Assembly (NCBI GenBank): GCA_015548865.1
Contig: JADMXW010000031.1
Span: forward strand, 1-32,000
Length of the DNA stretch: 32,000 nt
Origin: Serratia marcescens
GTDB lineage: Bacteria; Pseudomonadota; Gammaproteobacteria; Enterobacterales; Enterobacteriaceae
Direction: 5' to 3'
Notes under the pieces: generated by a model
Told to the model about the DNA's origin: nothing
What the model saw: only the letters and a program-made list of their open reading frames with translations
Database searches by the model: none
Program-made: the position numbers and the translations under genes
Shown here: positions 1,860 to 5,710 of the stretch, piece by piece
Numbering within the stretch: position 1 is the stretch's first letter
Layout of the letters: the number at the start of each line of letters is the position of its first letter

Positions 1860-2108
1860 ATGCGCATGGCATACGTTAGAAGGAAGGGTGGAGTCTATTA
1901 TGAAATGCCTGCCGCAGCGGTTAGCAACGGCAAGGGATTTGTGATTTATTGCTTAATTAGCCGCGATATGTACACAACAACGCCAATGATTTTTGCACTT
2001 TCGCTTACTGGGATTGGTGGTATCCCTTGCGCTGCTGGGACAAGAAAGCCTAAACCTTCGCCAGGAACAAACCGGTATATTGAGGCTGATCCGTGCACTT
2101 CTGCATAG
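1860..2108 (+). CDS. Candidate 82-aa ORF downstream of the LexA-box promoter, antisense to the last 163 nt of cI (speculative antirepressor)
   Basis: ATG at 1860 with GAGG 8 nt upstream. It is the in-frame 3' part of track ORF 1701..2108. It could equally be a shadow ORF of cI. Confidence 0.25.
   Translation: MRMAYVRRKGGVYYEMPAAAVSNGKGFVIYCLISRDMYTTTPMIFALSLTGIGGIPCAAGTRKPKPSPGTNRYIEADPCTSA
1900..1944 (+). CDS. Candidate 14-codon micro-ORF (MKCLPQRLATARDL) downstream of the LexA-box promoter
   Basis: ATG at 1900 with GGAG 6 nt upstream. The TGA at 1942-1944 ends 2 nt before the cI stop codon on the opposite strand. Confidence 0.25.
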   Translation: MKCLPQRLATARDL

Positions 2109-2557
2109 ACATAATCATTGTTTTCTGGCCGCTCAATCGTGTTGACAACAATGATTGATCCACTGGTGGCGTCCGGAAACCCAGTGTCTCTATTCAGCCT
2201 GTATGCTTTGCATCGCCTTGGGTTTATCCCTTTGGGAGCGGCAACAAAGTCTTTTAGTTGCTTATCACCATCCCACAGGGAGACGAACACCACGCCATCA
2301 ACCACCGGTGACTGGGCCTCGCCATCAAACTCAGAGGTAGAATCACTTTTCATCGGGCCAATGTTCATATCTAACCATTCCGGCCTAACCCCAAGGGCCA
2401 CTGCGATTTCAACTATGTGTCCTGACTTTTGAGTCTTGCCAGAAAGGATTTTGAAAATGCTGGGCTGAGCGATGCCTGCGGCTTCTGCAAGCTGAGCTTG
2501 ATTAAAGCCTCTCATATCCATCGCTAATTTCAGTCGTTCTGCAAGTGTCGTTTTCAT
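1946..2557 (-). CDS. cI: CI-type prophage repressor: N-terminal XRE helix-turn-helix and C-terminal S24/LexA-like domain, apparently lacking the autocleavage residues
   Basis: HTH segment FNQAQLAEAAGIAQPSIFKILSGK. The C-terminal half aligns by eye to lambda CI (KAYRL..FPDATSGSIIVV..IGVVV). It is divergent from cro across three operators. Start chosen at ATG 2557 (alternative 2569; the track start at 2593 is a TTG), because the predicted PRM would give a leaderless mRNA. Confidence 0.85.
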   Translation of the reverse strand: MKTTLAERLKLAMDMRGFNQAQLAEAAGIAQPSIFKILSGKTQKSGHIVEIAVALGVRPEWLDMNIGPMKSDSTSEFDGEAQSPVVDGVVFVSLWDGDKQLKDFVAAPKGINPRRCKAYRLNRDTGFPDATSGSIIVVNTIERPENNDYVYAEVHGSASIYRFVPGEGLGFLVPAAQGIPPIPVSESAKIIGVVVYISRLIKQ

Positions 2558-2564
2558 AGCCGTG

Positions 2565-2593
2565 AACATATAGCCGTGGTTATCTAGCGTCAA
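2565..2593 (-). promoter_or_regulatory. PRM-like maintenance promoter for cI
   Basis: On the - strand: TTGACG (2593..2588), 17-nt spacer, TATGTT (2570..2565). The predicted +1 falls at or near the A of ATG 2557, giving a leaderless mRNA as for lambda cI. The -35 abuts the middle operator. Confidence 0.5.
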
Positions 2594-3013: not shown

Positions 3014-3046
3014 ATAGTACCGAATGGATAACGCAAAGACACGCAA
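3014..3046 (-). promoter_or_regulatory. PRE-like CII-activated promoter
   Basis: On the - strand: TTGC-GTGTCT-TTGC (3046..3033), then 13 nt, then TACTAT (3019..3014). This has the same geometry as lambda PRE (TTGC-N6-TTGC, 13 nt, AAGTAT). It lies inside the first codons of cII. Confidence 0.65.
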
Positions 3047-3293
3047 AGACGCTCTGAAAATAGAGAGTGCTTTGCTTAACAAAATTGCTGTGAAAGGGGT
3101 AAGCGCTATTGCTGATTTAGTGGGCGTAAATCCTTCACAGATAACCCGGTGGAAAGAGTCGCTGATACCGCGCATGAGCTTACTTCTTGCGGTGTTGGAA
3201 TGGGGAGTTAACGACGACGATCTGGCGCATCTGGCTAAGCAAGTTGCGTTACTGCTGACCAAACAATCACAGGCGGGAGAATTCGAAGCCTAG
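3024..3293 (+). CDS. cII: CII transcriptional activator
   Basis: ALKIESALLNKIA...SQITRWK...LLAVLEWGVNDDD closely matches lambda CII (ALRIESALLNKIA...SQISRWK...LLAVLEWGVVDDD, from memory). Confidence 0.9.
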   Translation: MDNAKTRKDALKIESALLNKIAVKGVSAIADLVGVNPSQITRWKESLIPRMSLLLAVLEWGVNDDDLAHLAKQVALLLTKQSQAGEFEA

Positions 3294-3302
3294 GGGGATT
3301 TC

Positions 3303-3554
3303 ATGAATCACATGGAGTTCATAGAAAAAAACGTTAGAGACACGTTATTGCGTGACGGATACACGCCATCTCTGGCGAATATCGGAGCGATGAAAGCGGT
3401 TGAGTTTTATCGCCGTTCGTCTCAGGCCAGCAAAAAGGGTCGGATATTCGATGACTGCTTACGCGAAGGAAAGCTATGGGCAGACAAAAACAAGACGGTA
3501 GCGGATGCGCCGAAGAAGCCAAGAGGTAAGCCACGAAATGGTGCTCTCTTCTGA
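3303..3554 (+). CDS. Hypothetical protein (83 aa)
   Basis: Complete ORF. GGGGGA lies upstream of the ATG, 9 nt after the cII stop. Confidence 0.65.
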   Translation: MNHMEFIEKNVRDTLLRDGYTPSLANIGAMKAVEFYRRSSQASKKGRIFDDCLREGKLWADKNKTVADAPKKPRGKPRNGALF

Positions 3555-3584
3555 AAATAAAAATCCCCACTGGCAGGTGAGGAT
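3553..3584 (-). terminator. Rho-independent terminator for the reverse-strand gene 3632..3883
   Basis: On the - strand: AUCCUCAC-CUGCCA-GUGGGGAU (8 bp including one G-U) followed by UUUUUAUUUU. On the + strand the stem has an A-C mismatch and no U tract. Confidence 0.6.
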
Positions 3585-3631
3585 TCAGGGCAAATAACAA
3601 TTACTTTTTAGCAGGTATCAAATGAAAGAAT

Positions 3632-3883
3632 TCATTGCAAGAAATGTTTGTTTTCTGGCACTACGATTTTTCCGCCCAGCTTTGTTTCGATCTCGCGGAT
3701 GGAAGACAGAAGCATTGCTGTTGCCTTTGCTTCCAGAACCACCGAAATCTCCAGAGTTATGCCTAACTCAGCAGGAACGGGATGAGGGTAGACAAGCTGT
3801 AGTCGTCCTGTATCTGGGTCGTAAGAAACCTTACTGATGATCTCTATCGGTATTACAGATGGATTTCTCTTATTTTCGCTCAT
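3632..3883 (-). CDS. Hypothetical 83-aa protein: a reverse-oriented inserted gene (moron) between the cII region and the replication genes
   Basis: ATG at 3883 with GGAG 7 nt upstream (the track ORF is trimmed from 4003). It is bracketed by - strand terminators. Confidence 0.6.
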   Translation of the reverse strand: MSENKRNPSVIPIEIISKVSYDPDTGRLQLVYPHPVPAELGITLEISVVLEAKATAMLLSSIREIETKLGGKIVVPENKHFLQ

Positions 3884-3937
3884 GAAACCACTCCATTTAA
3901 TTGTGGATTTCAAGAGTACGCCAAATTTGCAGGACGG

Positions 3938-3968
3938 AAAAAGAAAAAGCCATCGGCGGCAACCGATG
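3938..3968 (-). terminator. Rho-independent terminator, possibly the 3' end of an oop-like antisense RNA
   Basis: On the - strand: CAUCGG-UUGCCG-CCGAUG followed by GCUUUUUCUUUUU. Confidence 0.6.
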
Positions 3969-4018
3969 ACTCTCAAGTTTCGATGGATTTTTAACTGGAT
4001 CAATTCACAGGAATAAGT

Positions 4019-4213
4019 ATGTCAGCAAACATCGAAAAGGTAAATACTCACCCGACTCACAAGTGTTCATTCTGCGATAAAACCAATGACGAATTAAGGC
4101 TAATCATTGCTGGCACCGGCGTTTGCATTTGCAATGAGTGTGTCCTTATTTGCGTAGAGATTGTTTTTGATCGCTACAAAAACGGGGAGGGTGAAGATGA
4201 GCCTAGCGCATAG
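4019..4213 (+). CDS. Stand-alone ClpX-type C4 zinc-finger (zinc-binding domain) protein, 64 aa
   Basis: HKCSFCDKTNDELRLIIAGTGVCICNECVLICVEIV matches the ClpX N-terminal domain ([35 protein letters not shown], from memory). There is no AAA+ module. Confidence 0.8.
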   Translation: MSANIEKVNTHPTHKCSFCDKTNDELRLIIAGTGVCICNECVLICVEIVFDRYKNGEGEDEPSA

Positions 4214-4979
4214 AAAAATATCACCTATCAGACCTGATTTGCAGGTCGTGGAGCCTCGCGTGGTTGATCTCGAAGATGGTTACACGCGAACTGCTAACGA
4301 ATTGCTTGAGGCCGTGATGTTATCCGGCTTGACGCAACACCAATTGCTGATTGTTATTGCCGTATGGAGAAAGACATACGGCTACAACAAGAAAATGGAC
4401 TGGATCGGCAATGAGCAGTTCGAAGCACTTACAGGGATGGCTGCAACAAAATGCTCTACAGCGAAAAACGAGTTAATCAGGATGGGAGTCCTTGTACAGC
4501 AAGGGCGACAGGTAGGAATGAATAAGGCCGTTTCTGAGTGGAAAACTAAGTTTAACGGATTCGGTAAAACCTTTACTGATTCGGTAAAGAAAAACTTTCC
4601 TGAATCGGTAAAAAGTGATTTACCGAAACGGTCAAACACAAAAGACAATATTACAAAAGACAATAAAGACATTAAAAATATAGGGAGTGACGACCCGAAA
4701 AAATCCCCCAAAAAGGAGAAAAAGGCGACGCAGCGATCACCTAATTTCTCCCCATCCGCAAAGCATGAATCTCTGGCCTATGAGTTAGGAGTTAACCTGC
4801 AAAACGAGTTTTTGAAGTTTGTCGATTACCACGACTCAAAGGGAACCACTTTCAAGAATTGGGATGCTGCTTTGAACATGTGGCTGCGCAACGCAGTCAG
4901 GTACAGCAAACCAACTGTGAGAGGTGTTTCCCGACCTAGCCAACCAATGAACCACATACCGGAGGGCTTCACAGGATGA
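4197..4979 (+). CDS. O: Replication initiator, lambda O-like (Phage_rep_O N-terminal domain)
   Basis: ATG at 4197 with GGAGGG upstream (the track start at 4161 is a TTG). Signature GYTRTANELLEAVMLSGLTQHQLLIVIAVWRKTYGYNKKMDWI. It contains the iteron origin internally, as lambda O does. Confidence 0.85.
   Translation: MSLAHRKISPIRPDLQVVEPRVVDLEDGYTRTANELLEAVMLSGLTQHQLLIVIAVWRKTYGYNKKMDWIGNEQFEALTGMAATKCSTAKNELIRMGVLVQQGRQVGMNKAVSEWKTKFNGFGKTFTDSVKKNFPESVKSDLPKRSNTKDNITKDNKDIKNIGSDDPKKSPKKEKKATQRSPNFSPSAKHESLAYELGVNLQNEFLKFVDYHDSKGTTFKNWDAALNMWLRNAVRYSKPTVRGVSRPSQPMNHIPEGFTG
4558..4680. repeat. Probable origin of replication inside the O gene: four iterons plus an AT-rich tract
   Basis: GATTCGGTAAA at 4558-4568 and 4578-4588; GAATCGGTAAA at 4602-4612; inverted TTTACCGAAAC at 4619-4629. 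An A/T-rich region follows at 4631-4680, containing a 13-bp direct repeat ACAAAAGACAATA (4638-4650 and 4653-4665). Confidence 0.7.
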
Positions 4980-5710
4980 GCGATTTAATTCGACGCCTAC
5001 AGGCTGCCATGCCTCCGGGCATCAAGCCAAAGTTCACGACGCCGGAAGAATGGGTGGAGTGGCAGAAGGAGCAGGGCCGGAAGGATTCGGAGCGCATTGC
5101 AGAGCAGAACCGCATTACCCGGCTGCAAAAAGTCCTCGGGCGATCTGGAATTCAGGAGCTTCACCGCACTTGCACATTCCAGAATTACAACGCTGAATTA
5201 CCGGGGCAACGTAATGCGCTGGATAAAGCCAAGCAGTATGCGAACCAGTTCGGCGGAGGGTTTGGTGGGTTCATTTTCAGCGGCGGTTGTGGCACTGGGA
5301 AAAACCATCTGGCGGCGGCTATCGGTAATCACCTGCTGGCGAAAAACAAATCCGTGCTGGTTGTCACCGTGCCCGACCTGATGATGCGATTTCGTGAAAC
5401 CTATCAGGACGGTGCGAAGCTGTCAGAGCATGACCTGATGAGCGACCTGTGCAACGTTGATCTGCTGATTCTGGACGATATCGGTGTGCAGCGCGGCAAC
5501 AAAAACGAGGAGGTAGTGCTGTTCCAAATCGTTGATCGCCGCCTGTCTGCAAAGAAGCCTGTGGGGATGCTAACAAACCTCAACGTTGAGCAATTAACCG
5601 AGCTACTTACCGAGCGAATCATGGACAGAATGCGAATGGACGGCGGCATGTGGGTAAATTTCGACTGGCCCAGCTATCGGAAAAATGTCCGGTCAAATCA
5701 GGGGGAGTAG
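4976..5710 (+). CDS. dnaC: DnaC-like helicase loader (AAA+ ATPase)
   Basis: GRSGIQELHRTCTFQNY...FIFSGGCGTGKNHLAAAIGNHLL...DLLILDDIGVQ...MLTNLN is close to E. coli DnaC. Its start forms an ATGA overlap with the O stop. Confidence 0.9.
   Translation: MSDLIRRLQAAMPPGIKPKFTTPEEWVEWQKEQGRKDSERIAEQNRITRLQKVLGRSGIQELHRTCTFQNYNAELPGQRNALDKAKQYANQFGGGFGGFIFSGGCGTGKNHLAAAIGNHLLAKNKSVLVVTVPDLMMRFRETYQDGAKLSEHDLMSDLCNVDLLILDDIGVQRGNKNEEVVLFQIVDRRLSAKKPVGMLTNLNVEQLTELLTERIMDRMRMDGGMWVNFDWPSYRKNVRSNQGE

Follow-up and report, generated by a model that had tools for sequence, protein, structure and literature searches.

Why would a prophage keep what looks like the docking domain of a host protease, cut free of the protease itself, directly ahead of its replication initiator gene? 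The window, as we call the whole 32,000-nucleotide stretch of Serratia marcescens DNA that was analysed, holds the immunity and replication region of a lambdoid prophage, and a gene of this kind lies within it. ClpXP sets the lifetimes of lambda O and of host regulators, including sigma-S, SspB-delivered ssrA-tagged proteins and antitoxins. Lambda O is not degraded by ClpX from which the zinc-binding domain (ZBD) at its N-terminus is missing (PMC7804408). A sequence-only reading of the locus had proposed that the free domain could act as a decoy, shielding the initiator or other phage proteins from ClpXP, or could retarget host ClpX. The domain call is already present in public annotation, with the family uncharacterised, and literature searches found no paper or functional study on a phage stand-alone ClpX zinc finger. 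We therefore asked what the protein is, how firmly its gene is tied to the initiator, and which roles fit both.

Results

A ClpX-type zinc finger without a motor

The features of the locus on which the analysis draws are the following.

1946-2593, minus strand: cI-like repressor with HTH_3 and S24-like domains
2607-2909: cro/YdaS-like gene
3024..3293, plus strand: CII-like activator (PF05269, 108 bits), the upstream boundary of the slot
3303-3554: small phrog_4439 gene
3632-4003, minus strand: ORF in reverse orientation that separates the cII side from the ZBD gene; no Pfam or PHROG match
4009..4012, plus strand: AGGA Shine-Dalgarno sequence of the ZBD gene, 6 nt 5´ of its ATG, read directly from the sequence
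4019..4213, plus strand: stand-alone ClpX-type ZBD gene, 64 aa, ATG start (ORF and PF06689)
4061..4168, plus strand: zinc-finger domain proper, residues 15-50, with putative Zn ligands C16, C19, C38 and C41; ClpX F16 and I46 correspond to F18 and I48
4184..4213, plus strand: junction of the ZBD and O-like genes, with the O Shine-Dalgarno sequence GGGGAGGG (4184-4191) and the O ATG (4197) inside the ZBD tail codons
4197..4979, plus strand: O-like replication initiator, 260 aa (PF04492, 123.6 bits; phrog_2365; TIGR01610)
4976..5710, plus strand: DnaC/IstB-like helicase loader (PF01695, PF00308, phrog_50)

The start of the ZBD gene is backed by the conserved N-termini of its homologues. Its 64-aa product matches Pfam PF06689 (zf-C4_ClpX) with 49.2 bits (E 4.9e-13; gathering cut-off, 27 bits), residues 15-50 aligning with profile positions 2-38 of 39. 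The CxxC knuckles, C16-x2-C19-x18-C38-x2-C41, have the 18-19-residue spacing expected of such a finger, a pattern that suggests zinc binding, and the 'IIAG' block is retained. The AAA+ module and the ClpP-docking loops are absent: membership of the ClpX unfoldases was judged with TIGR00382 and NF003745, and against the TIGR00382 clpX model the protein scored 38.5 bits, far below the cut-off of 370.75, over profile positions 6-48 only. The protein is thus a stand-alone ClpX-type C4 ZBD without a motor, and on both counts, the bare N-terminal finger and the missing AAA+ part, the sequence-only reading was right. No family besides PF06689 was found in a Pfam scan at E <= 0.01, and so no membership of CsfB/Gin; NCBIfam has no dedicated family for a ZBD-only phage protein, and PADLOC profiles at E <= 0.01 gave no defence or anti-defence match.

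The predicted fold agrees with this identification. An AF2 model computed from 32 subfamily sequences has pLDDT values of 88-94 over residues 11-50 and places a beta-hairpin at residues 29-38 and a helix at 39-54, the beta-hairpin and C-terminal helix of a treble clef as seen in 1OVX and 2DS5. When the model was compared with the PDB by Foldseek, the ClpX ZBD crystal structures 2DS5, 2DS6, 2DS7 and 2DS8 were recovered at an rmsd of 0.6-0.7 A (target-normalised TM 0.82-0.89), and no other structure scored. By sequence, too, the nearest solved structures are ClpX N-domains, namely those of Listeria (6SFW) and E. coli (1OVX and 2DS5). We infer that the phage domain binds zinc and dimerises.

Codon comparison of ten homologous genes indicates that this protein is maintained. 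Synonymous differences were at or near saturation (pS 0.5-0.9) with pN of only 0.17-0.43, dN/dS was 0.08-0.35 where computable, and about 30 diverged members show no variation at the four Cys, F18, G34, V35 or I37. Saturated pS combined with low pN shows that the gene is under purifying selection as a protein and is not a chance ORF. A few database variants are without one Cys. In the Klebsiella phage ST974-OXA48phi18.2, the ZBD gene (L002:3001-3189) shows solely non-synonymous changes relative to its sister ST846-OXA48phi9.2, S17Y and C45W among them, and this copy may be decaying or mis-sequenced; in ST846-OXA48phi9.2 itself, the ZBD gene carries no annotation on the correct strand.

The end of the ZBD gene contains the start of the initiator gene

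The ZBD and O-like genes overlap by 17 nt (4197-4213). This is exactly the overlap that had been read from the sequence, the O ATG lying at 4197 and the ZBD stop ending at 4213, and it confirms the coupling of the gene to the initiator gene that had been proposed. The short acidic tail that had also been described fared less well. Here the tail, NGEGEDEPSA, is indeed acidic, but across the subfamily the tails are acidic, neutral or strongly basic. The codons GGG GAG GGT GAA GAT GAG CCT AGC GCA, which specify G-E-G-E-D-E-P-S-A, contain in another frame the Shine-Dalgarno sequence of O and the first five O codons, and at the P22-like loci the ZBD tail likewise carries the Shine-Dalgarno sequence and start of the initiator. 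Given that its charge varies from acidic to basic and that it encodes the ribosome binding site and start of O, we rejected the acidic tail as a functional feature and read the tail as largely a by-product of overlap with the initiator translation start.

No sigma-70-like promoter was found when 3250-4300 was scanned on both strands, so the ZBD gene is transcribed from upstream, presumably from pR. An oop-like promoter considered at 4044-4016 was unsupported at the scan threshold. A strong minus-strand terminator-like hairpin of 13 pairs occupies 3945-3974, 45 nt upstream of the ZBD start. Public sequencing runs contained no more than 19% of the words sampled from the region.

The same placement ahead of three initiator families

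We surveyed the gene context at twelve distinct lambdoid loci carrying different subfamily members. At all twelve, the ZBD gene lies directly 5´ of the replication initiator gene, and at all twelve it lies 3´ of cII or a YdaT-type analogue. What adjoins it downstream varies as follows.

Initiator family 1, Phage_rep_O: the window, Pseudocitrobacter, Serratia and two P22-like loci
Initiator family 2, HTH_36/DnaD_N type: Salmonella, Citrobacter and Enterobacter
Initiator family 3, about 295 aa with no Pfam match: Klebsiella phages, Pluralibacter and Enterobacter
Gene after the initiator: a DnaC/IstB-like loader, a lambda P-type loader or a DnaB-type helicase
ZBD/initiator junction, O-type: 17-nt overlap in the same register at four loci (window, L007, L044 and L052)
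ZBD/initiator junction, HTH_36 loci: 20-38-nt overlap
ZBD/initiator junction, remaining loci: 14-43-nt gap

The locus in the window thus pairs an O-type initiator with a DnaC-like loader. A specific co-occurrence with Phage_rep_O, for which the sequence-only reading had suggested a survey, is rejected by these data, since the HTH_36/DnaD_N initiators and those without a Pfam match also adjoin the ZBD gene, and the three families are unrelated. When the N-termini of the three were compared, no common motif was found. The ZBD gene is tied to replication modules generally and not to O, and its placement before the initiator across three initiator families and three loader or helicase types is new here. 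One identical ZBD protein (P0215) is encoded at two loci, which have CII and YdaT respectively on the upstream side but share their downstream initiator; the mosaic boundary therefore lies upstream, and the ZBD gene is part of the replication module. In Pseudomonas lambdoid phages, a 65-aa ZBD is encoded a few genes 3´ of the O and helicase genes.

The slot itself is not reserved for zinc fingers. In HK544/HK97-type phages and one Yersinia phage, it is filled by unrelated small basic proteins of 53-54 aa (HK544, L056:1327-1488; Yersinia phage, L057:1311-1475), whose ORFs overlap the O start by 8-14 nt. The O protein of the Yersinia phage has the same N-terminal core as the O proteins next to a ZBD, yet occurs without the ZBD gene. 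As O-type initiators are found with unrelated ORFs in the slot, the ZBD gene is dispensable for them, and the place just ahead of the initiator serves generally as a slot for small accessory genes that are coupled to its translation.

The opposite ends of the initiators follow the loader. Initiators paired with a DnaC/IstB-like loader carry the C-terminal motif IP-x-GF(R/T)G regardless of family (O-type or no-Pfam type), as at 4940-4979 in the window and at the C-termini of L001:3204-4112, L032:4936-5829 and L038:4209-5093; one initiator with this motif also weakly matches the C-terminus of the primosomal protein DnaT (E 0.0076). Initiators paired with a lambda P-type loader end in ...NTDWIYGV(D/E)L, as lambda O does. 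These C-terminal motifs look like loader-specific docking tails.

A derived surface on a ClpX core

In ClpX, F16 and I46 belong to a hydrophobic side pocket overlapping the site for lambda O, a pocket that also serves SspB, RssB and trigger factor (Houry laboratory, PMC7804408). Both residues are conserved in the phage proteins: the equivalent of F16, F18, is invariant across the subfamily and that of I46, I48, predominates. Also kept, in ClpX numbering, are the four Cys, S15, K19, E23, A29-G30, V33, I35, E38, V40, L42 (here I), C43 and I47 (here V), along with the core IAG-G-V-IC. Compared with solved ClpX N-domains, the phage ZBD has 45-50% identity at an rmsd of 0.6-0.7 A and the same order of C4 treble-clef knuckles and C-terminal helix; unlike ClpX, it is encoded by a separate phage gene, has no AAA+ motor and bears unrelated N- and C-terminal tails.

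Other positions set the subfamily apart. Before the first Cys, a near-invariant T-H-K stands where ClpX has L-L-Y (L12-Y13 becoming H-K). ClpX Y34 is replaced by C in the 64-aa protein and by S, C or A in the subfamily, and ClpX D41, N44 and R48 are replaced by F/L, V and F. Positions 41, 44 and 48 are all hydrophobic in 91% of 75 subfamily domains versus 5% of 300 other ZBD-only domains, and are polar in the ClpX sequences examined from E. coli, Listeria and clostridia. The subfamily was defined by the T-H-K motif rather than by these positions, but its members are related, so that the contrast characterises a clade and does not amount to a statistical test. The spacing of the three residues (i, i+3, i+7) places them on one face of a helix. 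Since a pure ClpX mimic would have no need for a new hydrophobic face, this predicted face suggests that the protein either associates with itself more tightly or in higher order, or has a further partner. The lambdoid subfamily is a derived variant, not a plain copy of the ClpX finger; the combination of a retained F16/I46 pair with a gained hydrophobic helix stripe and T-H-K motif is, like the placement of the gene, new here.

Relatives in phages and hosts

The host clpX gene is on a separate contig (C9) of the same genome. Across all Enterobacteriaceae genomes from which it was extracted, the host ClpX N-domain does not vary in sequence; to the phage ZBD it is about 46% identical. The genome also encodes a second stand-alone ZBD on contig C12 (L037:5708-6058; also L005:1282-1632), a protein of 116 aa in which about 70 residues precede the finger as an N-terminal extension. 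Its gene belongs to a P2-like prophage, where it is flanked by the GPA replication gene and a gene for a Dam-type (D12-class adenine) methyltransferase, whose start abuts the stop of the ZBD gene; phage P88 has the same arrangement. A second PF06689 match is found in only 8 of 300 other species genomes of the family; stand-alone fingers account for five of these eight, and two of the five are of the lambdoid type.

Relatives were sought with a profile built from seven of them, as a single-sequence, word-indexed protein search matched only the protein's own cluster. The profile search gave 622 short proteins, with about 90 clusters clearly of the same subfamily (43-60% identity to the 64-aa protein) in Enterobacter, Klebsiella, Citrobacter, Salmonella, Pluralibacter, Leclercia, Raoultella, Serratia and Escherichia sp. 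RefSeq/NCBI names these proteins "ClpX C4-type zinc finger protein" or else hypothetical, and they match PHROGs 6797, 12435, 5259 and 20296, three without a function and one labelled merely "protease". The variant in the window is rare: its 90%-identity cluster holds 4 member sequences on 1 contig, and blastn matched none of 5,426 complete E. coli genomes. A sequence-pattern scan of genome contigs recovered one true relative, from Pseudocitrobacter, the rest being mostly full-length Clostridia ClpX with AGTGVCICNEC. An exhaustive HMMER list (6,359 matches at E <= 1e-3) is dominated at its top by proteins with 2-5 tandem ZBDs, because per-domain scores add up.

Several ZBD genes outside the subfamily were noted along the way. 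On one metagenomic contig, the gene for a four-tandem-finger protein (L054:4001-4681) lies just 5´ of a TIR/SIR2-domain gene and STAND-like (AAA_16/NB-ARC) genes. On another, the gene for a two-finger ZBD-only protein (L055:345-701) lies 37 nt upstream of a full-length clpX, and its product may be a cellular ClpX modulator. An Enterobacteriaceae genome (G138, contig C16) has frames of 435 and 424 aa on the same strand, 2.5 kb apart (L022 at about 80.1 kb and L024 at about 82.7 kb), with near-identical ClpX N-domains, an apparent tandem clpX duplication.

Discussion

We tentatively favour a role in which the free ClpX docking domain competes for ClpX clients or adaptors and lowers ClpXP-dependent turnover, and we would put its chances at a little short of even. 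In this model, the phage would encode the N-terminal docking domain of ClpX as a free and probably dimeric copy, and the early rightward operon would supply it together with the replication proteins of the phage. The protein would bind proteins or peptide signals that otherwise dock on the host ClpX N-domain, such as the phage initiator and possibly SspB or RssB, and ClpXP-dependent degradation or remodelling of the bound clients would fall as phage replication begins. The binding partners and the effect on ClpXP are those that we infer for the phage ZBD. The idea of a decoy is made plausible by the behaviour of the isolated ClpX ZBD, which forms dimers, cross-links to RssB and, supplied in trans at 5-20 uM, inhibits RssB-dependent degradation of sigma-S by 0.6 uM ClpXP in vitro (PMC7226468). 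Phages are known to encode inhibitors of host proteases, including RexB (ClpP) and PinA and gp4.5 (Lon) (PMC10286901). We also count in favour the conserved F18 and I48, the need for the ZBD in lambda O degradation by ClpX, the placement directly before the initiator at twelve of twelve lambdoid loci, the travelling of the gene with the replication module, and that P2-like and Pseudomonas lambdoid phages keep a ZBD-only gene in or beside their replication genes, and the two-ZBD gene directly upstream of a full-length clpX on a metagenomic contig is independent genomic evidence for free ZBDs working with ClpX.

Four observations count against a decoy. The adjacent initiators belong to three unrelated families without a common N-terminal motif, so that a single shared degron-shielding contact is not evident; O proteins with a similar N-terminal core occur without the ZBD gene; the derived surface positions unlike those of ClpX suggest an extra or different interface; and the host ClpX N-domain is invariant across the family, yet shares only about 46% identity with the phage proteins. 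The version of the decoy that is specific to O is weakened by the varied initiators, the O proteins without a ZBD and the derived surface.

The same surface could instead belong to a binding module that acts independently of ClpX, a small dimeric interaction domain for the replication machinery (the initiator, the loader or host DnaB) or for another host factor. ClpX has neither the stripe at 41/44/48 nor the near-invariant T-H-K and has kept Y34, the gene goes strictly with replication modules whatever their type, and CsfB provides a stand-alone dimer resembling the ClpX N-domain with an unrelated target (PMC5890618). Such a module is the main rival and a serious one, though we consider it somewhat unlikely, because the phage proteins retain 41-51% identity to true ClpX N-domains, F16 and I46 pocket residues included, and match PF06689 alone, and because the replication partners vary (DnaC-like, lambda P, DnaB-like), leaving no common phage-encoded target.

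In a further reading, unlikely in our estimate, the lambdoid subfamily would be no passive mimic: a dedicated replication-module factor, a ClpX-derived dimer with a new hydrophobic helix face and T-H-K, might control how ClpX handles unrelated initiators, either by shielding them or by handing them over for remodelling. If true, it would be the first regulator encoded by a phage to be made out of a part of its own target protease, and a general 'initiator licence' for lambdoid replication.

Instead of competing for clients, the phage domain could pair with the host ClpX N-domain itself, so that the three docking platforms of the hexamer are disabled or re-aimed and the protein serves as a poison subunit or retargeting factor. 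ClpX N-domains dimerise via their C-terminal helices and hairpins (PMC5890618), and the phage helix keeps the equivalents of V40, L42, C43, I46 and I47 and adds hydrophobic residues. The N-domains of a hexamer are, however, tethered at high local concentration and already paired, so that invasion by a free monomer should be unfavourable, and the phage protein has no extra domain to which new cargo might bind; we regard mixed dimers as quite unlikely.

That the protein serves mainly in anti-defence is less probable again. A damped ClpXP would prevent the turnover of antitoxins or labile immunity regulators, and hence abortive infection, in parallel to RexB acting on ClpP and T7 gp4.5 on Lon. 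Inactivation of host proteases is a described anti-toxin-antitoxin strategy (PMC10286901), antitoxins such as MqsA are degraded by ClpXP (PMC8808172), and the P2-like ZBD gene adjoins a Dam-type methyltransferase gene. What makes this role doubtful is the site of the lambdoid gene, within the replication module and often translationally coupled to the initiator, as opposed to defence islands or early anti-defence loci, and that neither PADLOC nor any other defence-related family matched. A decaying captured clpX fragment, or a leader ORF that solely couples translation into the initiator gene, is hardly credible in view of the invariant Cys, F18, G34, V35 and I37, the low dN/dS at saturated synonymous sites and the confidently predicted fold, even though the O start is likewise overlapped by the unrelated small ORFs that other phages have in this slot, one Cys is missing from a few database variants and the ST974 copy differs from its sister only at non-synonymous sites.

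Competition for ClpX clients is the reading that we put first. If the decoy is real, mimicry of the protease's own receptor domain would be a new mechanism, joining those of CIII, PinA, gp4.5 and RexB, with FtsH as the host AAA+ protease in the case of CIII. It would also account for a conserved and unstudied gene at the front of the replication modules of many enterobacterial prophages. Geneticists would gain a natural tool of 60 residues with which N-domain-dependent ClpXP degradation could be selectively blocked. If, on the other hand, the module acts independently of ClpX, a ClpX-derived fold would have been recruited to DNA replication. The value of the present work lies in a clear, cheap and testable hypothesis on a widespread unstudied phage gene.

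Two sets of known proteins bracket the phage ZBD, one by structure and one by logic. Bacillus subtilis CsfB (Gin, PDB 5N7Y) likewise stands alone as a small treble-clef zinc protein; its dimer is similar to that of the ClpX N-domain, and it acts purely by binding other proteins. CsfB differs in being an anti-sigma factor, with sigma factors as its targets, and it is about 20% identical to ClpX, with doubtful relatedness (PMC5890618). Lambda RexB, T4 PinA and T7 gp4.5 (PMC10286901), and also lambda CIII, have no sequence or fold relation to the ZBD, and none of them copies a domain of the protease, but they are alike in the logic proposed here, in which a small phage protein spares labile proteins from a host protease.
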